A stretch of 64,000 nucleotides of DNA from a virus (IMGVR_UViG_3300042908_001045:22306-86305); one strand, 5' to 3'; counted from the first letter of the stretch, positions 10,336-49,167 are shown. Translations and numbers: made by a program. The notes: generated by a model from the letters alone, not told the origin.

Positions 10336-11841
10336 ATGATAGAAATTCAATTAAATCCAAGATTTAAAACAAAAATTAAACAAAGAACAATTGACTTTTT
10401 AACACAAAACGGACGCGCTCAGTCGCTAGATAACTTTTATCAAGTTCCGTCTAATTATAGTGAGTTTTTGCAAGAGTGTTGTCGAATTAGATCTGGTAAT
10501 AAATTTATTCCTTTTGCTCCGTTTGAATATCAAAAAATTGTTAGTGATTTAATAGATAAATATCGCGGTATAATGATTTTCAAAACAAGACAATTAGGTT
10601 TAACTGAATGTATTTCTGCTAAGTTTTTACATAAAGCATTGTTAAACCCTGCCTACGCTGCGGCTGTATTGTCTTTAGGACAAAAAGAATCTTCTAATAT
10701 TGCAGTGCGTATTCAATCCATGCCTGCTAATATCAAAGACCTTAGATTTTTAACTAAATCTAAAACGGAGATCCACTTTCAGAATGCTGGTAAAATATGG
10801 TTTCGCCCTGCTACAGATAATGCTACACGGTCACTAGAATCTGTTAGTGATATTTTTTATGATGAGGCTGCATTTCCTCCTAATTTTAGTGAGATTTATG
10901 CATCGTCAACACCATCACAAGAAGCGGTAGGGGAAAATGCCAGAACTATAATGGCTACAACAATGTCTCAACTAGGAAAATTGTCGACTTTTTGGCAAAT
11001 GTTTGATTCAGCTAATCCAGTAAATGCAGAGGAATTGATAGAAAAAATTAAAGCAGGTAAAGAAGAGCCGTGCTATTGGTGGGTGGACAACAATGGCTGG
11101 GCAAAAGTAATTATTCATTGGAAGGCTCATCCAGTATATAGCAATGTTCCTGACTTTTTGCAAAAGACTAAAGAAAAACATAAATTAACAGATGATGCAC
11201 TTAATAGAGAATACAATCTTGGCATTCCTGATTCAGGTGGTGCTTTATTTAGTTCTGAGAATGTTTTTAAATGTGCTGTTGGTAGTTGGGCATTACCAAA
11301 TAAAGAAAGACATTATATGGCAGCATTAGATCCAAATTTTGGAGGTACAGACTATTGGGAGTATTTAATAATTGACATTACTGATTATCCATATCAAGTA
11401 GTAGCTGAGTACAGAGAAAACGATAGACAATCTTTGTTCTGTATAGACAAAACATTACAATTATCAGATGCTTACAATCCTGTTTTAACTGTAATAGAAC
11501 ACAACTCTGGTGGTGCTATTATTGCAGCTGAAATTGTTAAACAGCGTCCTGGTTTAGCAATTGACACAGTAGCCACTACTAACACTTCTAAAGTTGTTAA
11601 CACAGACCGATTGGCATTAGCATTAGAAAAAAGAGAGATTATATTTCCAGCTAATTGGGCAGGGTTAACAGAATTTAAAAGTTTTTCTCTTCAAACTAGA
11701 AATGCAATGTATGGACATGATGATTGTATTATGTGTTTAAGCATTGCTTTTGCTAGATTAGAAACAGCGTTAAGAAGACGCGGAGGAGCGTTAGCAGCAG
11801 ATCTGGGAACTGTGTCTAGAGCAAAATCTAGGTTTAGATAA
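10336..11841 (+). CDS. terL: Terminase large subunit
   Basis: KTRQLGLT Walker A-like motif, FYDEAAF Walker B, nuclease ALDPNFGG..D and HDDCIMCL. Confidence 0.88.
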   Translation: MIEIQLNPRFKTKIKQRTIDFLTQNGRAQSLDNFYQVPSNYSEFLQECCRIRSGNKFIPFAPFEYQKIVSDLIDKYRGIMIFKTRQLGLTECISAKFLHKALLNPAYAAAVLSLGQKESSNIAVRIQSMPANIKDLRFLTKSKTEIHFQNAGKIWFRPATDNATRSLESVSDIFYDEAAFPPNFSEIYASSTPSQEAVGENARTIMATTMSQLGKLSTFWQMFDSANPVNAEELIEKIKAGKEEPCYWWVDNNGWAKVIIHWKAHPVYSNVPDFLQKTKEKHKLTDDALNREYNLGIPDSGGALFSSENVFKCAVGSWALPNKERHYMAALDPNFGGTDYWEYLIIDITDYPYQVVAEYRENDRQSLFCIDKTLQLSDAYNPVLTVIEHNSGGAIIAAEIVKQRPGLAIDTVATTNTSKVVNTDRLALALEKREIIFPANWAGLTEFKSFSLQTRNAMYGHDDCIMCLSIAFARLETALRRRGGALAADLGTVSRAKSRFR

Positions 11842-38425: not shown

Positions 38426-38772
38426 TATACGGACTCCGTCCAGTCAGATAAGCTGTTGTCAAAGAATATTGCTCTAACTCTTACGTAATAATTACCTGGT
38501 TGTATATTTTCGAAAGTAGTAAACAAATCTGTAGTTGTTCTAGTTTGCTCCCAAATTCCTTCTTGTCCTTTTTTGATTTCTGCTACATAGCCTATTACCC
38601 AAGGAGATACAGCATTATCTAATAATGGTTGTTGCCAAGACGCAAAAACGTTAAATAAATCAACTTCTACAATCGTAGGAATTCGTATACTAGATAAACT
38701 TATGTTTCTTGGACTAGCATTAGCGTTTGGAAGTGCTGTCTTAACTGGTAAATTATCAAATTCCCAAGTCAT
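38425..38772 (-). CDS. Stand-alone fibronectin type III domain protein A
   Basis: Paralog of 37988..38425; both start MTWEFD. Confidence 0.75.
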   Translation of the reverse strand: MTWEFDNLPVKTALPNANASPRNISLSSIRIPTIVEVDLFNVFASWQQPLLDNAVSPWVIGYVAEIKKGQEGIWEQTRTTTDLFTTFENIQPGNYYVRVRAIFFDNSLSDWTESV

Positions 38773-40709
38773 ACCATTCTCATCTCATCAATAAAAGTAT
38801 ATTTACTATCATCATACTCTGCTGCTGTAATTTCATGCATACCTTCTATTGTTTCAGTTACAGGAACTCTGTTAATTACTCTGTATTTTTTAGGTTTAAC
38901 GCTAGTTCCGGATAATATCCAGTTAGACTCAGGAAGTGGAATCATAGGAAAATTTGAAGATACTACAATCGTTGATATATCGCTTCCTGCCCCAGTAACT
39001 ACAGTTCTTTCCACCGCTGTTCCATTGCTTAAAGTAACACTGATTTTGTAAGACTCTCCTGAAATTAACGTTACTGGACTATCTAGCGTAACAGTGTTTT
39101 CTGTGGCTGCTTTGATTAATCCTCCATATCTCATCTCTACTCTTTGTGAATCTAAAATATTAATTACGTCTCCTGGTTTAATAAATGCAGCGTAAGCCCT
39201 AGCTTTAAAAATAACTGTTTCTTGTTCTAGTCTATCTCCCATTAAAATAGCTACTCCAGCTCGCCTTGCTTGTCCTCTAGAAGTACATGCAATTGCTTCT
39301 ACTTCTAGTTCTTTAATACCCCATTTCTGAATGCCGATAGGGTCTTCTACTACTTCTACTGTTTTCCTATAAAAATCATTTGGGTTAAGCCAGCTAACTA
39401 ATGCTATTGTTTTTTTACTTTTTAATCCAGTTCTAGCATAAGTAAACAAGCCTTCTTCTACATCAGCTTGCGTAAATTGATATGAAACATTTGTTGGCTT
39501 GTCAGCGACGAATGTTATCGCACCAGATTGCCAATAGCTAAATCCTCTAAAAATTGTTATTAAAGATTGCAATACTTGGTACGCTTCTGTTTTACTCTGT
39601 AAAGCTATATTGCATTGAAATCTATGTTCTGTACCACCGTATCCATCTGGTACTAATCCATTGCAATACTGGCTAATCTCATATAATCCCCACTTATCTA
39701 TTTGCCCAATATCAATATAGTCTCCAAGCCCATATCTTGTGTTTGTTAGTAAATCATAAAGAATCCATGCTGGATCAGAAACAGCAAGAGTTGAGTAAAT
39801 AAAACTTCCGTTCCAAGTTCCACTGTATGTTAATCCTCTTTGCGCTGTGACAGTAGCATTACTGGGTATTCTAATAAGCATGCCAAAAACTTTAAAAGCA
39901 GCTGTAGGAATAGATGAAAAGCCACTAGTATTAAATCCAAACGCAGCTATAGCAGTGTTGGGATAACGTAAAGTAGTTGAATTTATTTTTGTGTATCCAA
40001 TCCATTGCATTTGACGTTGATAACCTTGCTGCTGGGTTTCTTCATTGTCTACTGTAAAATTTTGCACTCTTAATGTTAAAGAAGATAATGTATTTGCAGG
40101 GACAGGAATTGCGTAGTCAAACTCAGTAGGAGACGGAAATCTACCACCTATCGTAGTAGATAAAACAGTCACAAAAGCATTGTTATCTTGTTTTAATGAA
40201 ATTGCAAAACTTAAATCTGCGCCAGTGGTATCTCCATTATCTGGATTAATTCGTTGTAGTTGAAAAGAAAACTTAAAAATTATTAAATTTAGTAAAGTTT
40301 CACCTGGTTGAATAAATATGGTTTTATTAACACCATTTGGAATTGATTGTAAAACTTGAGCTGAGACTGATTCTGGAGAAGCAACCTGATCAAATCCTGG
40401 AATTTCTGTTATAGCTGCTTGTGTTTGAGTGCCAGTTCTATATCCAAATTGAAAATCTTTAAAGTTTAAACTTCCATCATTGTTTTCTATAGGAGTTTCA
40501 TCAAGAAAAACATTTCGTAAAGGATTTGAGCCTAATCCTTCTATAGTGCCTTCACAAATAGCTCCAAGAATATAAGCAGAAGCAACACTTCTTCCAGTTG
40601 GTTTTTGAATGCTTGGTTTACCACCGCCTTTACCGCCGCCTTTACCGCCGCCTCCACCGCCGCCTCCACCTTGCCCAAATATTTTAATTTCTTTCTTTTT
40701 TTTAACCAT
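38769..40709 (-). CDS. Host specificity / central tail tip protein, lambda gpJ-like
   Basis: CEGTIEG, YRTGTQTQ, YPNTA, DPAWILYDLLTNTRYGLG, IDKWGLYEISQYC, ACTSRGQARRAG. Confidence 0.92.
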   Translation of the reverse strand: MVKKKKEIKIFGQGGGGGGGGGKGGGKGGGKPSIQKPTGRSVASAYILGAICEGTIEGLGSNPLRNVFLDETPIENNDGSLNFKDFQFGYRTGTQTQAAITEIPGFDQVASPESVSAQVLQSIPNGVNKTIFIQPGETLLNLIIFKFSFQLQRINPDNGDTTGADLSFAISLKQDNNAFVTVLSTTIGGRFPSPTEFDYAIPVPANTLSSLTLRVQNFTVDNEETQQQGYQRQMQWIGYTKINSTTLRYPNTAIAAFGFNTSGFSSIPTAAFKVFGMLIRIPSNATVTAQRGLTYSGTWNGSFIYSTLAVSDPAWILYDLLTNTRYGLGDYIDIGQIDKWGLYEISQYCNGLVPDGYGGTEHRFQCNIALQSKTEAYQVLQSLITIFRGFSYWQSGAITFVADKPTNVSYQFTQADVEEGLFTYARTGLKSKKTIALVSWLNPNDFYRKTVEVVEDPIGIQKWGIKELEVEAIACTSRGQARRAGVAILMGDRLEQETVIFKARAYAAFIKPGDVINILDSQRVEMRYGGLIKAATENTVTLDSPVTLISGESYKISVTLSNGTAVERTVVTGAGSDISTIVVSSNFPMIPLPESNWILSGTSVKPKKYRVINRVPVTETIEGMHEITAAEYDDSKYTFIDEMRMV

Positions 40710-40739
40710 TTGTTTTATTTTTTAAACAAAAAAACTAGA

Positions 40740-41318
40740 TTATGCTGGAATATAAGCACTACTTATTTTAGCCGAAATAACATAAAAACCAGAAATCATG
40801 ATACCGTAAATGATTGGTACTCTACCGCCTTCCTGTGTGTTAGACTGTATTCCACCAAAAGTTTCACTACTTTTTTCCGGCTCTTCTTTGGCTGGTTTGA
40901 ACAAAGATGCAATACCTGCAAACAGTAACACGGCTCCCATCAAAATCGTCCAACTAGAAGTAAAAAACTTAGTTCCCCAAATTAGAACTCCACCTGGCGC
41001 AACTATTGCTAGAGTAAACAGTGCTGCTGCGCCTACCCACATCCACCAGTTATCTCCACTTCCGGAAATCACGGGAATAATTCTAATACTACGCACTTTT
41101 TTTGAAATAGGACAATATAGTTTTTCTCCATGAACATCTTCATACCCAACTACTATTCTATACATCACTCCACGTTTTTCGGCTTGTTGTAAATAATTTA
41201 AAAAATTGCTAAAATTGGCTTTTAAAGCTCGCATTAATTCGGCAATAGATTGTATAGCCAGTTCAATTTTATCTGTAAAAATATCGGCTAATTCACCTTC
41301 TAGAGAGACTGTAATCAT
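40740..41318 (-). CDS. Tail assembly protein, lambda gpI-like
   Basis: IIPVISGSG, hydrophobic middle, NTQEGGRVPIIYG...VISA. Confidence 0.88.
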   Translation of the reverse strand: MITVSLEGELADIFTDKIELAIQSIAELMRALKANFSNFLNYLQQAEKRGVMYRIVVGYEDVHGEKLYCPISKKVRSIRIIPVISGSGDNWWMWVGAAALFTLAIVAPGGVLIWGTKFFTSSWTILMGAVLLFAGIASLFKPAKEEPEKSSETFGGIQSNTQEGGRVPIIYGIMISGFYVISAKISSAYIPA

Positions 41319-41649
41319 GAGTTATCCAACCATTCCTTTTATTCCCAGCTGGGATAATACAAAAACAGAACAATCAAATTTGATTGTAACTAAGTTTTTG
41401 CCTAATGCTGTTGAAGCAAGGGCATTTAAGACCAAAATTAATACCACAAATGTTACTTTCGCCGTGTCTGGAAATATTACAAATGCAACTGAAGTGGACA
41501 ATTTTCTAAGACAGCGTAATGGGAAAGCATTTAAAATAGAAGGTAGCGACGAACTATATCATTGCACAGAATGGACAGTGCAAATATTAGCAGATAATGT
41601 AAATGCGTTTTCTGCAACATTTGAACAAGTAAGGAGTTTTGCAACATGA
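41317..41649 (+). CDS. Minor tail protein, lambda gpM-like paralog B
   Basis: MSYPT...VDNFLRQRNGKAF...YHCTEW...FSATFEQV; ATGA-coupled to gpL. Real start is ATG 41317 (track extends it to 41206). Confidence 0.8.
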   Translation: MSYPTIPFIPSWDNTKTEQSNLIVTKFLPNAVEARAFKTKINTTNVTFAVSGNITNATEVDNFLRQRNGKAFKIEGSDELYHCTEWTVQILADNVNAFSATFEQVRSFAT

Positions 41650-42353
41650 TTCCAAATTTAATGACATTAAACCCTGATGCTTTTATAGAATTATATGAAG
41701 TGTATAAATACGATTTAAATGACAAAAATAAAGAAGAAGGAGACCCATCTATTAAAACAATTAGAATTTGTAATGTTGGCATCGATGAAGACAGTCCGTG
41801 GGTAAATTTCGAAGGAGATAAATATTATGCTATTGGCTGTCAAGGAGAAGGATTTGACTTAATTGGACAAGGAGCTATCCCAACTCCAAGTTTAACTGTA
41901 TCAAACGTTGGTGGTATATTGACTGCTTGGCTAAAGCAAAGTAGACAACCTGGTTACAGGCTAGAAGGAACTTTAGTTAAAAGACATGTGACCCAAAAAC
42001 GGTTTTTAGATGGACAAATTGATGCAGGCGCTGGAGTAAAAGAGTTGCCTGTACAAACTTACGTAATTGAACAATTAACAGAAGAAAACTACAATAACGC
42101 CAAGTTCAGATTAGGGTCTCCTTTTGATGTTGAGGGAATCACTTTGCCAGCTAGAGTAATGGTGCGTAAATGTACTTGGATATATCGCAGTTCTGAATGT
42201 GGATACGCAGGCAGTGCTAAATACACAATAACTAACCAGCCTACTAATGACAGTAATGCTGACATTTGTGCAAAAACTTTAGCAGCTTGTAAATTAAGAT
42301 TTCCAGGACAACCTTTACCGTACGGTGGGTTTCCTGGATTAAATACTTACTAA
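41646..42353 (+). CDS. Minor tail protein, lambda gpL-like
   Basis: IELYE, PTPSLTVSN, RFLDG, CTWIYRSSECGY...C.K.L.AC.LRF..LPYGGFPG (Fe-S cysteines). Confidence 0.92.
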   Translation: MIPNLMTLNPDAFIELYEVYKYDLNDKNKEEGDPSIKTIRICNVGIDEDSPWVNFEGDKYYAIGCQGEGFDLIGQGAIPTPSLTVSNVGGILTAWLKQSRQPGYRLEGTLVKRHVTQKRFLDGQIDAGAGVKELPVQTYVIEQLTEENYNNAKFRLGSPFDVEGITLPARVMVRKCTWIYRSSECGYAGSAKYTITNQPTNDSNADICAKTLAACKLRFPGQPLPYGGFPGLNTY

Positions 42354-42583
42354 CTCTCTAAGTTTTGCTTTTTACGAATTAAATTAGAGTAAATTTCTAT
42401 CCTATTTAAAAGTTCTAATTCTTTGGATAATCCATCTCTAATTAATCTGTTGGCAATAGAACTAACAGACTCACCAGACTGCTCAGACATAATTCTTAAT
42501 ACAGCTAAAACGTCTTTGGGTACCGAAACTGAAAATTGTTGCATATTTTTAGATAAAGTGTAATTACTGTAAGCATACAGCAT
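42350..42583 (-). CDS. Ribbon-helix-helix (CopG/Arc-like) regulator
   Basis: FSVSVPKDVLAVLRIMSEQSGESVSSIANRLIRDGL; divergent from the FtsK operon. Confidence 0.65.
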   Translation of the reverse strand: MLYAYSNYTLSKNMQQFSVSVPKDVLAVLRIMSEQSGESVSSIANRLIRDGLSKELELLNRIEIYSNLIRKKQNLES

Positions 42584-42613
42584 ATATAATCTAAATAAAA
42601 AGGAGATGCAACA

Positions 42614-42898
42614 GTGTCTATATTTGCTACCAAGAAGTTTTTACCATTGCCTGAGGTTGAGCCTGAAAGAGAAATGTGTCCTTTAGATTTTCAGGAGAAG
42701 TGGGGATTAACAATAAATGAGATGTCTTATGTATTGGGAGTTTCACCTCATACATATAAACACTGGAGAGCGAGAAAAGGGACAAAATCTCATAATGAGA
42801 TTCCTACAAGCCAGAAATTGCACTGTAAGGCATTAGATCAGCTTTGGAGTATAAGTGGTATGCCTAACGTTAGAGTGCTTGCTAAAAAGTATCTTTAA
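42614..42898 (+). CDS. HTH protein
   Basis: PLDFQEKWGLTINEMSYVLGVSPHTYKHW; AGGAG RBS. Confidence 0.65.
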   Translation: MSIFATKKFLPLPEVEPEREMCPLDFQEKWGLTINEMSYVLGVSPHTYKHWRARKGTKSHNEIPTSQKLHCKALDQLWSISGMPNVRVLAKKYL

Positions 42899-43008
42899 GA
42901 TACTTATTTTGCATCTTGTTTGTACTTGTGCTTCTTTATAGTGGTTGTTATTCTTTATCTATTCCGAGTTAATTCCGGAATCAATCTAGAAATAGGATAA
43001 CAACCATT

Positions 43009-43392
43009 ATGACAGAGGTGCTATGCACAACATTAAAGAGACGGTATAGAACAAAAAAGTACAGACCAGTTGACATATTATTAGGTGATTTATCAAGAGA
43101 AGAAGTTGCGAAACAATTGCATATGACTTCTCGTACACTTCAAGAATTGCTGAGATTAGCAGCTCAACATATAGAAGGCTTTGATAAATATCTAAATGAC
43201 GAATGTCGGCTAAATGGTCACCCTATTAAATATCAACATGAACTTGATTTAATAGCAGAAATTTACCGGCTAAGGAGCAGATATAAAGGAGTTAAGGATG
43301 GCTCTTTAATGCTTAAAGAAGACCTAATTAATTTAAACGAAAAGTACAAGCAACAAATTAAGGAACAAGAAGATGAACAAAATCAGGATTAG
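43009..43392 (+). CDS. Putative HTH DNA-binding protein
   Basis: LSREEVAKQLHMTSRTLQ. Confidence 0.6.
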   Translation: MTEVLCTTLKRRYRTKKYRPVDILLGDLSREEVAKQLHMTSRTLQELLRLAAQHIEGFDKYLNDECRLNGHPIKYQHELDLIAEIYRLRSRYKGVKDGSLMLKEDLINLNEKYKQQIKEQEDEQNQD

Positions 43393-43966
43393 AGATGTAG
43401 CAGATCGTTGTGGATGGACACCGAAAGAGTTGTTCATCAGGCTGAATAAAGAACCAGGAATTAACGTCAAAACAATTAATGACGAGTTTCCTGAGTTAGA
43501 AGAAAAATCGCAGTTATGGTTAGATATTCAAGCTGCAATTAAGCTAGATAACGATACGTTTGAAGAGCCTATTGCAGCTATGCCAGAAGGCGCGATAACA
43601 GAAGCGGAAATGGTAGAGACAACACTAGTTAAGTCTCAGACTATCCAACAAGTATTACAAGCAGCGACAGAAGACACGGGCAGGCAACATGCTCAAATAG
43701 CTGGTGCTATTGGAGGAACACGTAATGCCTTGGCGTATATTGAGTCTACCCAAGCTGCTTATCAAAAGATTATCGAGTCTCATCTAGATGCTCAATTTGC
43801 TGTGACTAGTGACCTATTAGAAAGTGCAAAAAAAGAGCATTTGAATCTTTTAGATAATTGTCAAGAAAGACTCAAAAATGTGTATGAGTTAAGGCAAAAG
43901 CTAGAGCAGAAAAGAAAAGAGATGGCTCAAATATGCAACACAATTACCAACACCAAATTGAGTTAA
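43373..43966 (+). CDS. N-terminal HTH-like plus coiled-coil protein
   Basis: IRIRDVADRCGWTPKEL; heptad-rich C-terminus. Confidence 0.6.
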   Translation: MNKIRIRDVADRCGWTPKELFIRLNKEPGINVKTINDEFPELEEKSQLWLDIQAAIKLDNDTFEEPIAAMPEGAITEAEMVETTLVKSQTIQQVLQAATEDTGRQHAQIAGAIGGTRNALAYIESTQAAYQKIIESHLDAQFAVTSDLLESAKKEHLNLLDNCQERLKNVYELRQKLEQKRKEMAQICNTITNTKLS

Positions 43967-44271
43967 GAAATATTGACTTAGTTTGTTTACAGCAGTATGT
44001 CGAGTTGGTTTATTTAGAGCAGCTGCACCTTGCGGTTGAGCTAGGACAATTGCAAATGTTTAATTACATTATTCAGAAAAGAAAGGAGTTCATTAAAGCC
44101 ATGTTAGATGCAGCGTTAAGTACTGTATTAAGCAGTGGATTTTTAGGAGCAGCTAGCTATATTGCTGTAGCTACAGCAATTGTTAATCCTGTTGCTTTGA
44201 CAGCCATTGGAGTTGCAGGAATTGCAGCTGGTGTTTACTTACAAATTAAACAAATTAAGGGAGCAAGATAA
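43933..44271 (+). CDS. Small membrane protein
   Basis: Hydrophobic C-terminal hairpin; true start may be ATG 44101. Confidence 0.55.
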   Translation: MQHNYQHQIELRNIDLVCLQQYVELVYLEQLHLAVELGQLQMFNYIIQKRKEFIKAMLDAALSTVLSSGFLGAASYIAVATAIVNPVALTAIGVAGIAAGVYLQIKQIKGAR

Positions 44272-44507
44272 TGAGTCGGTACGGTAAGATTGAACGAAAA
44301 GAAGTAGAAGAAAGCTATGAAATTGATGGCTTAAAAACAAGAACAAGGATTACATATAAAGAGCCTGAAACTAGTCAATTTGCACAAAACGTAGCTGTAC
44401 TGGCTACATCTGCTGCAATTATATCAGCATCATTAACAGCTCCAATTGTGGCTGTAAAAATTGCAGACGCAGTTATATCATCTCACAATACTCAGTGTCA
44501 AAAATGA
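44271..44507 (+). CDS. Small membrane protein
   Basis: VAVLATSAAIISASLTAPIVAV hydrophobic stretch; TAATG coupling. Confidence 0.6.
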   Translation: MSRYGKIERKEVEESYEIDGLKTRTRITYKEPETSQFAQNVAVLATSAAIISASLTAPIVAVKIADAVISSHNTQCQK

Positions 44508-44896
44508 ACTTTTTTTCAGTTTTTTTATCTGCTGCTAATGACAAAATGGAAGACTTCATATATGGGAATAAGTCTATATTTCCATATATCTATGAGGTTT
44601 CTGAAAGAGAATTAGAAGCCATGAGAAAAGATGTTTCTGAATCTCAGGCTAATGCAGCTAGAGCGATCCAATATCTCAAACTTGTTGGAGAGAAAGTAGA
44701 TGCGGTAAAAGCTGTGGCTGATGCAAACCAGCAACTAGAAATGAAGTTAATTAATACTTCAAAGTACATGGCAAACAAATTTGAAACAATGAAAATGCCA
44801 AGGAGAGAATACAGAAAATTAACGGCTAAAAAGAAACTCCATCCAAAGTATCTCATTGAAAGAAGTGCATCAGCAATTGTTAAAGAAATATTATAA
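44495..44896 (+). CDS. Coiled-coil hypothetical protein
   Basis: Operon-coupled ORF; start may be ATG 44504. Confidence 0.6.
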   Translation: MSKMNFFSVFLSAANDKMEDFIYGNKSIFPYIYEVSERELEAMRKDVSESQANAARAIQYLKLVGEKVDAVKAVADANQQLEMKLINTSKYMANKFETMKMPRREYRKLTAKKKLHPKYLIERSASAIVKEIL

Positions 44897-44905
44897 CGAG
44901 GAATT

Positions 44906-45157
44906 ATGAACGACGAAAAAAGCGATTTACAGCATCATGCTCATTGGATGTTTATTGCGAACCAAGCACTAGTAATTGTAGCTATTGGTGCTTTTACTGG
45001 ATATTTATCTAGATATTATCCACCAACAAGTCCGGTGGTAATGACATTGATTAGCTTTGCTTTAATTTGGGGTGCTTTATTTCCCGCAATTAGGAAAATG
45101 CTAATGCTAGTTGGATTGTTTTACGCATTAGGACTAGTAGTATCTCACTTAAACTAA
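44906..45157 (+). CDS. Small 3-TM membrane protein
   Basis: Three hydrophobic segments in 83 aa; GAGGA RBS. Confidence 0.65.
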   Translation: MNDEKSDLQHHAHWMFIANQALVIVAIGAFTGYLSRYYPPTSPVVMTLISFALIWGALFPAIRKMLMLVGLFYALGLVVSHLN

Positions 45158-45158
45158 T

Positions 45159-46964
45159 ATGGCATTAACACTTTTTAGGAAAAAACCACAACAACACAAG
45201 CAATTTGTGTTAAGCCCAAGCATTTTGTATCAGCTAATATTAGTTGGCTTTTTAACTGTTGCTCCAGCTGCAACTAGTTGGAGGCAACTGAAAGAAATCC
45301 GGCTTGGGTCTTCTGCAATAGCAGTTTTATATTCTATAGCTTTGTTGAGTAAAACACAAAGCCAAATTGATGAAGCTGATAGACTGACCATGGAAAAAGA
45401 GCATTATAGAACTGCTTATTATAATGCTTCTGGTAGAAAATATGAGGAATTAGAAGCGACGTTAATTCCAGTTGAACCATTGGCATTGCCAGAACAAAAA
45501 TCTCATCCACTAGAGCAAGCACTTTTCAATCTCGGTGTTGAAGCCAATGTTTTAGAGGAAGTTGACTCACCTAGCTTCACTAGAGTTAAAATAACACCTA
45601 GTAGTAAAGTGCCATTTAGTAAAGTAGCTGGATTAGGTGACACATTGCAGGTTAGCCAAGGATATGAGAATACTCCATTGATAACGCCTCAGAAAGGACA
45701 TATTGCTATTGATATTCCAAAATCAAGTCAAGAGCGTAAATTCTGCGAATATTCTGACTATTCTGGATATTTAAATAGCAATTCATTCACTGTTCCAATT
45801 GGAGTTAATATTGACAACAACTTAGTTGAAGTTGATTTATCATCTCCGGTTTCAGCACATTTGCTAGTAGCTGGAAGTACTGGAGGAGGAAAAAGCGAGT
45901 GGATGATAGCAGCCATTTGTAGCTTACTTACTAGGTTTAATTCAAGTGAAGTTCAACTATATTTAGTAGACCCTAAGTTAGTTGAATTTACCAAGTTTCA
46001 AGACTATCAACAAGTAACATTGATTGATAGAACTGAGATGGCTATTCAAACATTAAAAGTGTTGTGTAATACCATGCAAGAAAGATATGAACTATTCAGG
46101 AGAAGTCGGTATAAAGATTTGGCTGAATACAATAGATACCATTCAAAATTACCAAGAATAGTTATCTTTTTTGATGAATTTAGTGCTTTTGTTTGCGGAG
46201 AATCTAAAAACGAATTCAACGCAGCACTAGCAGAGATTGCACAGAGAGGTAGAAGTGCTGGATTACACTTAATCTTAGCTACACAACGCCCTGATGCAAA
46301 TGTAGTTACACCATTGATACGCAGCAACATTACTGCGAGAGTGGCGTTCAAGACTATTCAATCTCAGGACAGTAAAATTATTCTTGGAGCAGAGATTGGA
46401 GGTTTTGATTCTAGTAAATTACTAGGCAAAGGAGACTTGATTTTTACTAATGGAGGAAACGTTCAAAGACTGCAAGGATTGTATGTTAATGATTGCAATT
46501 TATTATTAGCAAATGTTGATACCAAAGTATTAACAAATGAGGCTTCACCATGGAGCAACGAGGGGCTTCACCCATATTCAAGAGAAGCTAGTGAGGAAGA
46601 TACAGGTGAAGCTATTAGTCCTTTAGCTGAAATGCCGTCAAATCAAGGTTTTATGCAACCAAGTTCCAAAATACTATCATTGGTGAAGCTAAAAATAGCA
46701 GAACTAAAGTCTGAGTCAGTTGATGCTACAGAGCCGTTATTTAATGAAATTTGGGGGTTAACGACAGAAGAGAAGCTAGTAGCACTCAGATATTTATTAA
46801 ACCAAAAAATAGGCAAAGAAAATGCAATTTCTATTCTATGGAATCGCAGTTCAGGAGGTAAACATCATTCCAGATATCAAGATTGTTCTAATACTTATGA
46901 AGCCATGATTACTGCTTTAAAACAACAAGGATTTTCTAATGAAAATTGTTGGGGATTTAATTAA
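45159..46964 (+). CDS. FtsK/SpoIIIE (TraB-like) DNA translocase with N-terminal TM segments
   Basis: HLLVAGSTGGGKS, LVDPKLVEF, IVIFFDEF, IAQRGRSAGLHLILATQRP, IRSNITARVAF, LLGKGDL. Confidence 0.92.
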   Translation: MALTLFRKKPQQHKQFVLSPSILYQLILVGFLTVAPAATSWRQLKEIRLGSSAIAVLYSIALLSKTQSQIDEADRLTMEKEHYRTAYYNASGRKYEELEATLIPVEPLALPEQKSHPLEQALFNLGVEANVLEEVDSPSFTRVKITPSSKVPFSKVAGLGDTLQVSQGYENTPLITPQKGHIAIDIPKSSQERKFCEYSDYSGYLNSNSFTVPIGVNIDNNLVEVDLSSPVSAHLLVAGSTGGGKSEWMIAAICSLLTRFNSSEVQLYLVDPKLVEFTKFQDYQQVTLIDRTEMAIQTLKVLCNTMQERYELFRRSRYKDLAEYNRYHSKLPRIVIFFDEFSAFVCGESKNEFNAALAEIAQRGRSAGLHLILATQRPDANVVTPLIRSNITARVAFKTIQSQDSKIILGAEIGGFDSSKLLGKGDLIFTNGGNVQRLQGLYVNDCNLLLANVDTKVLTNEASPWSNEGLHPYSREASEEDTGEAISPLAEMPSNQGFMQPSSKILSLVKLKIAELKSESVDATEPLFNEIWGLTTEEKLVALRYLLNQKIGKENAISILWNRSSGGKHHSRYQDCSNTYEAMITALKQQGFSNENCWGFN

Positions 46965-47070: not shown

Positions 47071-47922
47071 ATGTATCAAGTGTTGAAAGTAAAACCATAT
47101 AAGCTGCCCAAAGAATACTCTAAATGGGAAGATTTTATTGATGAAATGAATTTTTTTTGTGATAAATCTAAAAAAACAAACTATGGTAAATTCTCAAATG
47201 AGATAAACCCAATAGTTAATAATTTATCTATGGAGAAAATTCAGTCTACTCCAGTTTACTGCATTAGAAAACAGCTTTTAGAGGAGATATCATTAACTGA
47301 CGTTTGTGATAAAAGCGGAGTTTTATCTGATTTAAAAGTTGCAATTCCAATGATTACTGTTTTTTTACCTAATGGCATGGTTGAGTCACCAACTAACGAA
47401 GTTCATGCTACTGTAAAATATGTAATTATTCAACATAAAGAAATAAATGATAAAACATACAAATCAGCAATTTACTGGACTGCAATGGATTCATACAGGC
47501 AATTCTCTATTGGAGCCAGGAAGATTAGACATGATGGAGGATACCTAAGAGACAATATTGTTGAAAACGTAGGAATTCAAGACAAAGAAGAGATTGAAAG
47601 GAAATTCTTTAAACTGCAAAACTTAATTTTACAATCATTAATGTTATTGCAGATTTACCCTGAGTTATCAGAAGAAATGGCATTTTGTGAGGCACACGAA
47701 AGCAAAGGATTTGCTAAAATTAATCATGAATCTTTGTATAGATTGCCACGATGGTTGGGAGTAAAGAAAATAAAACGTATTTATGAAAACTCTGGCAATC
47801 ATTCTGGAGTACCTAAATCTCCACATGTACGCAGTGGACATTGGAGATTGCAGCCCTGTGGCAAGCAAAACAAAGAACGTAAAACTATTTGGGTTCGCCC
47901 AGTGTGGATAAACTATGCTTAG
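47071..47922 (+). CDS. Phage hypothetical protein
   Basis: C-terminal SPHVRSGHWRLQPCG...IWVRPVWIN motif common in phage proteins. Confidence 0.7.
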   Translation: MYQVLKVKPYKLPKEYSKWEDFIDEMNFFCDKSKKTNYGKFSNEINPIVNNLSMEKIQSTPVYCIRKQLLEEISLTDVCDKSGVLSDLKVAIPMITVFLPNGMVESPTNEVHATVKYVIIQHKEINDKTYKSAIYWTAMDSYRQFSIGARKIRHDGGYLRDNIVENVGIQDKEEIERKFFKLQNLILQSLMLLQIYPELSEEMAFCEAHESKGFAKINHESLYRLPRWLGVKKIKRIYENSGNHSGVPKSPHVRSGHWRLQPCGKQNKERKTIWVRPVWINYA

Positions 47923-48496
47923 AAACGATAAGTGGATTATTGAAAAGTCAAAGGAAGGGATGATTGTCCCTTTTGAAAAAACGTTAGTCCGTCATGTTGA
48001 TGAAAGACAGTCTATTAGCTATGGATTATCTTCTTACGGTTATGATATTAGCCTATCAGGAGAAGAGCTTTGCTTGTTTAAGCACGTGGTAGGGTCTATT
48101 GTTAATCCTAAACAGTTTCATAATCATGTTGTAGAAAATCTTTCGCTACAGTATGACGAATATGGATCCTTTTTTGTTTTACCACCCCATTCTTATGCAC
48201 TTGGTAAGACAGTCGAAAAATTTAATATGCCTCCAAATGTAATGGGCATTTGTGTCGGAAAAAGCACTTACGCTAGAGTAGGTATTATGGTAAATATCAC
48301 TCCATTAGAGCCAGGATGGAAAGGATATTTAACCCTGGAAATTGCTAATTTAGCAGATACAGACTGTCGTGTTTATGCTAACGAAGGAATTGCTCAATTG
48401 TTGTTTCTACAAGGCGATAATTGTCTAACTACTTATTCTGATAGACAAGGCAAATATCAAGAACAACCAGACGCGATTGTATATGCTAAAGTTTAG
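47915..48496 (+). CDS. dcd: dCTP deaminase
   Basis: ISYGLSSYGYD, GKSTYARVGI.VN.TPLEPGWKGYLTLE, YANEGIAQLLF, GKYQ. Confidence 0.95.
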   Translation: MLRNDKWIIEKSKEGMIVPFEKTLVRHVDERQSISYGLSSYGYDISLSGEELCLFKHVVGSIVNPKQFHNHVVENLSLQYDEYGSFFVLPPHSYALGKTVEKFNMPPNVMGICVGKSTYARVGIMVNITPLEPGWKGYLTLEIANLADTDCRVYANEGIAQLLFLQGDNCLTTYSDRQGKYQEQPDAIVYAKV

Positions 48497-49167
48497 CTGT
48501 TAACTAACGTAGCAATTTCCTCTGAGATTGCCAACACTTTTTGCAAATTAACAGGACAGCCAATATAGCAACGGGTTTTTTCTAATAAGAGAAAGCCCGT
48601 ATATTTTTCATTAATTAAATACAAAAAATATGATTTAGTAAATCGTTTTTTCATCCAATTCTTGTATATTTTACCTTTTTGGTAATCATCATAATAAACA
48701 TATTTTTGCTTACCTTCAACCATGTAATTTATCTCTGTGCTAACAATTGAGTAAATATGTTTAGTCTCTTTAGATTGAAGTCTGTTTACTGCACAATGCT
48801 CAAACCAGGCACAAAAAGAAGTGGCGTAAATACGATCATTTTTTTTCCTAACCTGCTCTAACAAAAACAATGTAGTACGATTAAAGCCTAGTTTAGTCAA
48901 GTCTCTTAATAATTCTCTAATAGATTCTTCTTCTTGTGGTGTAAATTCAGGAGTGTTAGAAGCCTGATGAGATAGGTCTTCAAATTTATTAATTAACAAC
49001 TTGATTTGGCTTTTAAAATGCAAAAACAACCAGGCAGCCATAGCAGAAATTATTACCGGAGCAGCACTTATTATTAGCTCTGTCGTTATATCGACGACTA
49101 TCTTGTAATACGTATTGGTTGATTGCTGTTGTTGTGTTTCAGCCAAATACTTTTGCATAAAAATCAT
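48493..49167 (-). CDS. Single-TM protein with GAF-like C-terminal domain (possible holin or regulator)
   Basis: One N-terminal TM segment (IISAAPVIISAMAAWLFL); alpha/beta C-terminus ending GFLLL...ISEEIATLV; downstream of the tape measure gene. Confidence 0.4.
   Translation of the reverse strand: MIFMQKYLAETQQQQSTNTYYKIVVDITTELIISAAPVIISAMAAWLFLHFKSQIKLLINKFEDLSHQASNTPEFTPQEEESIRELLRDLTKLGFNRTTLFLLEQVRKKNDRIYATSFCAWFEHCAVNRLQSKETKHIYSIVSTEINYMVEGKQKYVYYDDYQKGKIYKNWMKKRFTKSYFLYLINEKYTGFLLLEKTRCYIGCPVNLQKVLAISEEIATLVNS

Follow-up and report, generated by a model that had tools for sequence, protein, structure and literature searches.

The window analysed here comprises 64,000 nucleotides of viral DNA (IMGVR_UViG_3300042908_001045:22306-86305), corresponding to bases 22306-86305 of an 86,305-bp virus record of IMG/VR that was rated as complete by CheckV. 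At positions 42350-46964 (positions are those of the window unless given as genome positions) it harbors nine genes, encoding a divergent ribbon-helix-helix (RHH) regulator, an Xre-type regulator (g2), two soluble proteins of helix-turn-helix (HTH)-like character (g3 and g4), three small membrane proteins (g5, g6 and g8), one helical soluble protein (g7) and, as the last product, an FtsK-like translocase. From the window alone, an original prediction had described these genes as a plasmid-like operon in the style of the TraB/Spd systems of Streptomyces, by which a phage might spread its DNA between the cells of a filament independently of virions. Every gene of that set was found where it had been placed. 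The operon proved to be shared by three phage clades, and its motor appears to derive from cyanobacterial FtsK proteins.

The FtsK-like motor and its C-terminal domain

The last gene of the operon (45159..46964, + strand) encodes a membrane-anchored FtsK-like translocase of 601 amino acid residues (aa), which matches PF01580 (E 4e-32), PF17854 (FtsK_alpha; E 3e-5, 24.6 bits against a cut-off of 22.9, residues 112-187) and PHROG 1358 (E 5e-70). The protein consists of a transmembrane (TM) helix (residues 16-39), a long helix and variable linker extending to about residue 115, the alpha domain (112-187), the RecA-like beta domain (207-448), a disordered linker (457-501) and a C-terminal domain (500-601, hereafter C-domain). 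The Walker A residues G242/G244/K245, the Walker B residues D339/E340, the TQRP motif at 375-378, R388 and R394 are invariant in 12 full-length family members, and AlphaFold2 modeled the alpha/beta motor with a predicted local distance difference test (pLDDT) score of 70-93, together with the N-terminal helix, the long helix and a separate helical C-terminal domain. When the family profile was compared with the PDB, the FtsK proteins of P. aeruginosa and E. coli were retrieved with E values of 1e-64 to 1e-60 (2IUU, E 1e-64), followed by weaker matches to EccC/YukB-type chains of type VII secretion (4e-42 to 7e-34) and to TcpA (1e-30). Judged by its domains and motifs, the 601-aa protein is a complete, catalytically intact FtsK alpha/beta motor of the kind that translocates double-stranded DNA (dsDNA).

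Compared with cellular FtsK/SpoIIIE proteins (P. aeruginosa FtsK, PDB 2IUU/6T8B), the phage protein has the same alpha and beta motor, all catalytic motifs and an N-terminal anchor, but it is encoded by a phage, within an operon of small membrane proteins, and carries an unrelated C-domain instead of gamma. Cellular FtsK possesses four N-terminal TM helices, whereas the single helix at residues 16-39 is the only one in the phage protein and is kept across the family. No match to FtsK_gamma, the winged helix that reads FtsK-orienting polar sequences (KOPS) or SpoIIIE recognition sequences (SRS) and activates XerD, was found in the 601 residues. The presence of PF01580 and of one N-terminal TM helix, together with the lack of gamma, agrees with the earlier description of a membrane-anchored FtsK/SpoIIIE ATPase with a non-canonical C-terminal domain.

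The C-domain that replaces gamma (46656..46961, + strand) is predicted by AlphaFold2 to be small and helical, with five helices over residues 500-601 (pLDDT 78), and bears the motif GKE.AI..LWG..SGGK.H..Y. VIA-align superimposed it on the HTH domains of LsrR, SorC and Lrp/AsnC regulators with Z scores of 4.2-4.9 and a root-mean-square deviation of about 2 Å over 48-50 residues, values that lie within the noise range for helical models; all its VIA-align scores were Z ≤6, and HTH domains stood among many unrelated helical matches. The top PDB sequence match of the C-domain profile was 1s7o (annotated as UPF0122, function unknown; E 0.09), which we take to be a YlxM-type protein with a sigma-70 region 4-like HTH. 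Foldseek found nothing in the PDB at E ≤0.001, while searches of Pfam and of the ESM Atlas gave nothing meaningful and nothing usable, respectively. From its model the C-domain may be HTH-like, an assignment made with low confidence.

The domain is rare, with 36 matches among 1.84 billion representatives. Outside the phage family it was found at the very end of 510-680-aa proteins with a P-loop (Walker A GGTGIGKT or similar) and, in the single sequence read through, an N-terminal membrane segment; in small proteins, including one that has a GIY-YIG-like T5orf172 domain; and in a STAND-like NTPase. Two multi-repeat matches (P0289 and P0296) are rich in fn3 domains and were set aside as probably spurious. 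The 510-680-aa P-loop proteins (L197-L201, L157-L159) are encoded on cyanobacterial contigs carrying ParA or ParM-like genes, tyrosine or serine recombinases and primase-helicases. The 570-676-aa group comprises five loci, four of which (L197-L200) encode, directly upstream, a protein of 240-265 aa for which several membrane helices are predicted. These proteins are an uncharacterised module of mobile elements.

C-domain matches were obtained in 4 of 401 genomes sampled across the phylum, in 13 of 401 from the order of Nostoc carneum and, at E ≤0.001, in 5 of 389 from its family, with one strong match among the latter. This strong match, on a 25.7-kb Nostocaceae contig (L202, G810:C5, 2988-6814), is a full FtsK of the phage family, preceded by small membrane open reading frames (ORFs) and, 1.4 kb upstream, by a homologue of g4 (hhalign 97%, E 5e-11, 169 columns), and followed by cellular genes; its neighbors include genes for two-partner secretion, CHAT and IscB-like (RRXRR-HNH) proteins. 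No homologue of g8 was detectable before this FtsK gene, and no phage structural genes were present within the 20 kb read. Since a family FtsK and a g4 homologue occur here on a contig among cellular genes, the FtsK-g4 core exists outside recognisable phages too.

A nine-gene operon in three phage clades

A tblastn search of the phage collection returned two full-length relatives, CrV-01T and Cr-LKS4, both phages of Cylindrospermopsis raciborskii, and a third clade (L012-L017), with FtsK about 50% identical, was found in IMG/VR. In CrV-01T (MH636380, gp045-gp053) and Cr-LKS4 (OQ625504, g47-g55) the same nine-gene operon follows tail gene L in the same order, annotated as tail L, a small gene on the − strand, a Cro/C1-type gene, six small genes and 'cell division protein FtsK'. 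Their FtsK shows about 44% identity to that of the present phage over the aligned 82% (38-43% over both aligned pieces by tblastn), has a linker 70-90 aa longer and is followed by different genes. In all three clades the nine genes stand in fixed order directly 3' of tail gene L, with FtsK proteins that are mutually only 45-50% identical. All operon genes except g6 were recognised by BLAST in the L012-L017 clade, and five of the nine (RHH, g3, g7, g8 and FtsK) in the CrV clade, where the other four match by position, size and membrane topology. Because the same order after tail gene L recurs in three diverged clades, the operon is, on the evidence of gene order and sequence, an old and fixed part of this phage lineage, not a recent addition.

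No further full-length members were found in a metagenome scan or in a second viral scan using the divergent clade (P0010-P0017); tblastn of the plasmid collection gave no match with at least 80% query coverage, and among the best 80 loci of the genome-contig scan there were motor-level matches only. The records of CrV-01T and Cr-LKS4 annotate nothing more specific than 'cell division protein FtsK', 'Cro/C1-type domain protein' and hypothetical proteins, and a term search of papers dealing with these phages (PMC9303873, PMC12481020 and a bioRxiv preprint) yielded no mention of FtsK or the operon genes. The gene set itself is not new, since the GenBank records of two cultured phages contain it, although not annotated as an operon and not studied. 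The new points are the conserved nine-gene architecture, the exchange of gamma for a rare domain that also occurs in proteins of plasmid-like cyanobacterial contigs, and the finding that the system is not TraB-related.

The operon begins with the RHH/Arc-like regulator (42350..42583, − strand), the divergent gene of the original prediction, which is supported by sub-threshold Pfam matches (RHH_5, E 1e-4, 22.3 bits, below the 26-bit cut-off; Arc, E 0.01) and by PHROG 3180, an Arc-like repressor (E 3e-4). Its true start is likely Met14 at 42544, giving about 64 aa, and its stop codon overlaps the stop of tail gene L; orthologues of 66-77 aa occupy the same place in L012, L017, L019-L022 and CrV-01T (gp045). 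An AT-rich spacer of about 70 bp, identified by reading the sequence (42545..42613), separates it from the Xre gene and is presumed to be a candidate divergent promoter and operator region; a scan for promoter-like sites gave fewer than shuffled sequence. The Xre/Cro-type HTH protein g2 (42614..42898, + strand, 94 aa) starts with GTG at 42614, 8 nucleotides (nt) after an AAGGAG, and matches PF20432 (Xre-like-HTH; E 1.8e-5, 25.4 bits against a cut-off of 25.8). It is 48% identical to its L012/L017 orthologues, and gp046, which takes its place in CrV-01T, carries the annotation 'Cro/C1-type domain protein'.

Neighboring genes from g3 through FtsK either overlap or are separated by 1-9 nt, in line with the tight coupling noted originally, but g2 and g3 are split by 110 nt with a strong hairpin. 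This long RNA hairpin (42928..43021, + strand), an inverted repeat with 24-nt arms, covers the start codon of g3 and has a folding energy of -40.2 kcal/mol (z -8.0; 0 of 200 shuffles equally stable), and the same spacer in L012, L019 and CrV-01T contains a terminator-like hairpin followed by a U run. It is a candidate terminator, attenuator, antitermination point or translational gate for the pump genes. Because of the hairpin in this spacer, here and in the relatives, the operon proper, from g3 to FtsK, seems to be set off from the Xre gene by a gate.

The genes between the hairpin and FtsK all lie on the + strand. Protein g3 (43009..43392, 127 aa) is soluble, with a charged tail and a weak HTH signature (DUF2316, E 0.002; Sigma70_r4_2, E 0.02; both sub-threshold), and has orthologues in all three clades with 31-39% identity. 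Protein g4 (43373..43966, 197 aa) combines an N-terminal IF2_N-like small helical/HTH motif (IF2_N, E 0.002, sub-threshold) with a long helical C-terminal part, and is 32-33% identical to its L012/L017 orthologues and, in an alignment, 21% identical to its positional equivalents in the CrV clade. Where three HTH-type proteins had been proposed, g2 comes close to its cut-off, but the HTH matches of g3 and g4 are sub-threshold, so that their HTH nature is plausible, not proven. Profiles of g3, g4 and g7 gave noise only against PDB sequences.

The three small membrane proteins were borne out by hydropathy, with two, one and three TM helices in g5, g6 and g8, respectively. The first, g5 (43933..44271), is a Gly/Ala-rich two-helix hairpin whose start is uncertain: with Met42 at 44056 it would have about 71 aa, close to the 76-aa L012 orthologue, to which it is 51% identical; CrV gp049 has the same size and topology. 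Protein g6 (44271..44507, 78 aa), which begins with a 1-nt overlap with the g5 stop, is a single-pass membrane protein with positional equivalents of one TM helix in L012 (6928-7245) and in CrV (gp050), to neither of which sequence similarity was detected. It is followed by g7 (44495..44896, 133 aa), a soluble protein without TM segment, helix-rich by composition, which has orthologues in all three clades (28-39% identity) and no family or PDB match. Protein g8 (44906..45157, 83 aa), with about three TM helices, ends 1 nt before the FtsK start and is the best conserved of the small proteins, with 64-65% identity to L012, 39-41% to the CrV clade and 27 invariant columns. No family matches of g5, g6 or g8 were found in Pfam or PHROG, and none of the small proteins showed similarity to the genes around the Brasilonema plasmid FtsK or the tested C-domain proteins (L157-L160).

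Ancestry of the motor, genome context and host

Comparison with a profile of the phage family's motor, to which the bit scores of this comparison refer, separated the family members (515-576) from the cyanobacterial nuclease-FtsK fusions (374-383), from other bacterial FtsK-type proteins (222-278), the Brasilonema plasmid FtsK (266) and gp183 of mycobacteriophage Bobby (233), from TcpA (120) and, at the far end, from two Streptomyces TraB-like proteins (68.5 and 64.2), one encoded by a plasmid and the other by an element resembling an actinomycete integrative and conjugative element, with GntR, Rep and Int neighbors. In the maximum likelihood tree, the phage family is monophyletic (100/100) and joins the cyanobacterial FtsK clade (99/96), with a Nostocales plasmid FtsK on a long branch as its sister (92/80), whereas the one TraB-like protein included, from plasmid pRVR2, forms the most distant branch. 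On account of these scores and this tree, the motor is, as far as sequences can tell, a capture from a cyanobacterial FtsK lineage, and its likeness to TraB is convergent. The placement of the phage clade inside the cyanobacterial FtsK clade speaks against a phylogenetic tie to TraB. The TraB/Spd-style description held for the layout, namely regulators, coupled small membrane proteins and a membrane FtsK-type motor, but not as specific kinship (64-68 bits against 374-383 for the nearest cellular proteins), and the Kor-type repressors also implied by that model were absent, none of the regulators being of the GntR family and those present being RHH/Arc-like and Xre-like.

The Streptomyces TraB/clt/Spd/TraR system (pSVH1; PMC4447253) shares with the phage operon, on paper, a membrane motor of the FtsK superfamily whose C-terminal part would recognise DNA, a repressor and small membrane proteins that are translationally coupled, as well as an implied dsDNA substrate and the lack of a relaxase and a type IV secretion system (T4SS). 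The proteins g5, g6 and g8 (1-3 helices, 78-112 aa) are translationally coupled as in Spd operons and are set beside Spd proteins by description, not by sequence. Unlike in the Streptomyces system, no 8-bp repeat locus and no SpdB2-like four-helix pore protein were found here, and the regulators are RHH/Xre and not GntR (Kor/TraR) proteins; the operon belongs to a virion-forming phage with a cyanobacterial host. The clt locus of TraB systems is a cluster of direct 8-bp repeats to which the C-terminus of TraB binds (PMC4447253). A search for non-coding clusters of 7-10-mers, which a single unrepeated site would escape, found none in or near the operon, so that this hallmark of TraB systems was not seen; the repeat clusters that do occur belong to the coding sequences of the tape measure and other genes or to a distant AT-rich region. 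No over-represented or strand-skewed 7-10-mers were found in the 86-kb genome. As predicted originally, there is no relaxase or T4SS: relaxase (PF03432) and VirB4 (PF03135) had no matches in the whole 86.3-kb genome, and the sole match to T4SS-DNA_transf (VirD4 family, PF02534) was a sub-threshold one of 12 bits inside a helicase gene. Type IV coupling proteins and TcpA differ in their association with a relaxase and mating-pair formation, which is not encountered here.

The nearest cellular relatives, with 36-41% identity, are the cyanobacterial nuclease-FtsK fusions (PF01612 and/or PF12705 with PF17854 and PF01580; for instance in Phormidium tenue, Moorena and Tolypothrix), which differ in having N-terminal nuclease domains, no TM helix in the members examined and no C-domain. 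They form a large cyanobacterial family (P0019-P0120; L069-L096) with 3'-5' exonuclease and/or PD-(D/E)XK domains, routinely annotated as 'DNA translocase FtsK', in which the protein stops at the end of the motor in 8 of 8 cases examined, and which in its make-up seems closer to a defence or repair enzyme than to a protein of cell division. The tree sister, the FtsK of Brasilonema octagenarum plasmid pBOCT1, is 33% identical over the motor and likewise resides on a mobile element of filamentous cyanobacteria, but it has a long branch, lacks the C-domain and has neighbors dissimilar to the phage operon genes; its operon includes an M23 peptidase and a lysozyme, whereas that of the phage has no wall hydrolases. 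Phage proteins of PHROG 1358/3551, 'FtsK/SpoIIIE-like protein' (Omegavirus Bobby gp183 and Bacillus phages), belong to the same motor superfamily and occur in tailed phages with a terminase, such genes being already known in phages; Bobby gp183 (442 aa) forms a separate clade, with Ku adjacent, and its motor begins at residue 13, leaving no room for an N-terminal anchor.

Besides the operon, the window encodes the lambda-like tail proteins J (38769-40709), I (40740-41318), M and L (41646-42353), a 3563-aa tape measure, tail-tube paralogues, a T4-type terminase, DnaB, a DnaN clamp, a helicase, a dCTP deaminase and ParA; ribonucleotide reductase, thymidylate synthase and further genes are encoded outside it. 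The terminase lies apart from the FtsK operon (10336-11841), as had been noted, and FtsK is very unlikely to be the packaging motor. Relative to lambda, the order of the tail-tip genes is scrambled, with M and L sharing the strand of the FtsK operon and J and I placed on the opposite one, and I (− strand) and M (+ strand, with its real ATG near 41317) stand head to head with zero spacer (40740-41649). A mis-assembly at the junction between I and M, or between tail genes and operon, was ruled out because an independent DNA contig covers positions 40000-44358 unbroken.

The phage ParA (3746-4651) is 85-87% identical to the ParA proteins of Anabaena sp. UHCC 0204 and Dolichospermum. Because of this identity, the host is probably a planktonic filamentous cyanobacterium of the Nostocales, of the Dolichospermum/Anabaena type; the filamentous host expected from the outset is likely also in view of the operon-bearing relatives, which infect Cylindrospermopsis. 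The phage ParA is about 50 aa shorter at one end than its Anabaena and Dolichospermum counterparts and is usable as a host marker. Near-identical DNA was found in lake and other freshwater metagenomes from more than 12 studies. Contigs from two metatranscriptome libraries of one study cover, at 99% identity, g3-g4, g7-g8-FtsK, g10 and dcd, a weak hint of expression in which DNA carry-over is possible; the tail genes had no overlying RNA-library contigs in that study, which is not taken as evidence of timing.

Several other features of the genome were observed. An exact inverted terminal repeat of 127 bp (genome 1-127 and 86179-86305) is of k-mer size and may be an assembly artefact. An AT-rich stretch at genome 4346-4660, in which AAATTAG and GATTTAA each occur five or six times, is iteron-like and a candidate replication origin. 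The 1933-aa ribonucleotide reductase ORF (genome 16686-22487; L152:687-6488) matches its family in four separate stretches, with endonuclease-like and other inserts between them, which suggests inteins or homing elements. A 283-aa protein without family match (47071-47922) follows FtsK in this phage only, and a 224-aa membrane protein (48493-49167, − strand) together with the dCTP deaminase is common to the L012 clade, but not to CrV-01T.

Proposed function and its implications

The operon probably encodes a membrane dsDNA pump acting on phage DNA. Its motor would be hexameric, as are FtsK, SpoIIIE and TraB, and, hung on its single N-terminal TM helix through the long helical linker, would form one complex of the cytoplasmic membrane with g5, g6 and g8. 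The C-domain, perhaps with g3 and g4, may pick the DNA or a partner, while the RHH/Xre pair and the hairpin or terminator before g3 would keep the pump silent until required. FtsK-type pumps drive DNA away from the motor's own compartment, as is established for SpoIIIE and TraB; by analogy, the complex would transport dsDNA, and most likely that of the phage, out of the cytoplasm of the cell producing it. As its purpose we tentatively propose that phage DNA is segregated at, or cleared from, the septa when filament cells divide, segregation being the alternative role named in the original prediction: in a long infection or carrier state of a dividing polyploid filament cell, replicating phage DNA would be moved through the closing septa, and phage genomes would be neither trapped nor lost, being inherited by both daughter cells. 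Behind this proposal we rank, in descending order, host takeover, cell-to-cell spread, exclusion or defence, a helper of genome entry and an ATPase not acting on DNA.

The pump and its proposed role are favored by the intact FtsK motor with its membrane anchor and membrane partners, by the core status of the operon in three clades, by the cyanobacterial origin of the motor, by the g4 homologue accompanying FtsK in a non-phage context, by the DNA-handling company of the C-domain, which elsewhere is carried by membrane-anchored P-loop proteins of plasmid-type contigs and by a GIY-YIG-like protein, and by the fixed-order, translationally coupled co-inheritance of the motor with g4, g5, g6, g7 and g8. 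No tyrosine integrase match was found in the whole 86.3-kb genome, which, with the host-like ParA, is compatible with episomal carriage. Several observations weigh on the other side. A septal role would not have been inherited from the nearest cellular relatives, the nuclease-FtsK fusions, which have no membrane anchor; no polar KOPS-like word or repeated recognition site is present in the 86-kb genome, so that no guide for the pump is seen; and the HTH assignment of the C-domain is weak (Z <5, E 0.09). In addition, CrV-01T has been suggested to be obligately lytic (PMC9303873, citing Martin et al. 2019), which would make segregation less obvious.

An action of the pump on host chromosomes or on the divisome instead of phage DNA, by which host DNA is cleared or displaced, or septation blocked or hijacked, would fit the PHROG class of phage FtsK-like proteins ('moron, auxiliary metabolic gene and host takeover'), the host derivation of the motor in the tree and the lack of phage-specific recognition repeats. 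It is nevertheless unlikely, as a fixed core module with its own regulators, accessory proteins and private C-domain argues for a dedicated substrate, and the replacement of gamma removes the reader of host KOPS. Rather improbable is virion-independent spread, in which phage dsDNA would be exported through the septum into the adjoining filament cell, in the way that Streptomyces plasmids are transferred by TraB and the Spd proteins. The layout is that of TraB/Spd, with a membrane FtsK-like motor, coupled small membrane proteins and regulators in the absence of relaxase and T4SS, FtsK-type pumps are exporters, all known or inferred hosts are filamentous Nostocales, and the sister plasmid FtsK lies beside an M23 peptidase and a lysozyme in a plausible envelope-crossing operon. 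Yet neither specific homology to TraB (64-68 bits) or Spd proteins nor clt-like repeats in or near the operon were recognised, the operon has no cell-wall hydrolase or peptidoglycan-binding domain, and two cytoplasmic membranes and a septal wall would have to be crossed with no recipient-side machinery in view. Moreover, FtsK-like genes, of other architectures, are plentiful in phages whose hosts are unicellular (such as Bacillus, Listeria, Staphylococcus and Mycobacterium), and the apparent restriction to filamentous hosts cannot be separated from phage phylogeny, Nostocales being the hosts of the entire phage lineage. That such a pump would carry an infection along the filament without virions, as a TraB/Spd counterpart arisen independently from cyanobacterial FtsK, accordingly has a low probability.

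A role in superinfection exclusion or defence, with a membrane pump that expels or blocks incoming foreign DNA, would be in keeping with the PADLOC matches of the motor to the FtsK-like terminal part of SspH, a defence protein (E 3e-44), and to mad8, with the defence-like appearance of the nuclease-FtsK fusions and with self-regulation by the RHH/Xre pair. The SspH match, however, involves the last 330 of 1766 model positions and the motor only, none of the other eight operon proteins matches a PADLOC model, and no SspABCD or other Ssp partner genes are present in the operon; membership of an Ssp system was rejected on these grounds. The phage protein moreover has no nuclease domain, and the position of the operon within the structural gene block, fixed over three clades, is unlike that of a mobile defence island, which leaves this explanation little chance. 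Two-step DNA entry is known in phages T5 and phi29, and an early-made, membrane-anchored DNA motor with its own early-type regulators might draw the remaining phage genome into the cell; this is very improbable, given that the operon lies mid-genome (about 65-69 kb of 86 kb here and about 40-45 kb of 104 kb in CrV-01T) and that FtsK-type pumps export away from the motor side. Least credible of all is that the protein is not a DNA pump but an EssC/EccC-type (type VII) secretion ATPase or a second packaging ATPase, despite significant PDB matches to EccC/YukB-type chains (4e-42 to 7e-34) and a match to the PHROG 2666 terminase (E 1e-12). FtsK proper matches far better (1e-64), the alpha domain specific to DNA translocases is present, EssC/EccC proteins have two or three tandem FtsK-like domains where the phage protein has a single ATPase domain, and no WXG100-like substrate was recognised. 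Assignment as a type VII secretion ATPase was rejected for its single ATPase domain and its alpha domain, and assignment as a packaging ATPase because a T4-type terminase is encoded elsewhere in the genome.

FtsK-like genes are common in tailed phages, and the roles found for them in the literature are suggestions, none of them demonstrated. In the phages described here, FtsK is not a stray gain but the last gene of a fixed nine-gene operon, held while FtsK diverged to 45-50% identity. Two cultured phage-host pairs carry this operon (CrV-01T and Cr-LKS4 on Raphidiopsis/Cylindrospermopsis raciborskii), which makes its function open to experiment, and the shared C-domain serves as a marker for a group of membrane P-loop proteins, uncharacterised so far, that are encoded on cyanobacterial contigs with plasmid-type replication and partition genes. 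If phage DNA does pass through septa, to daughter cells or to neighbors, this would represent a second, independent invention of FtsK-driven dsDNA transfer and would change models of infection dynamics for bloom-forming filamentous cyanobacteria.

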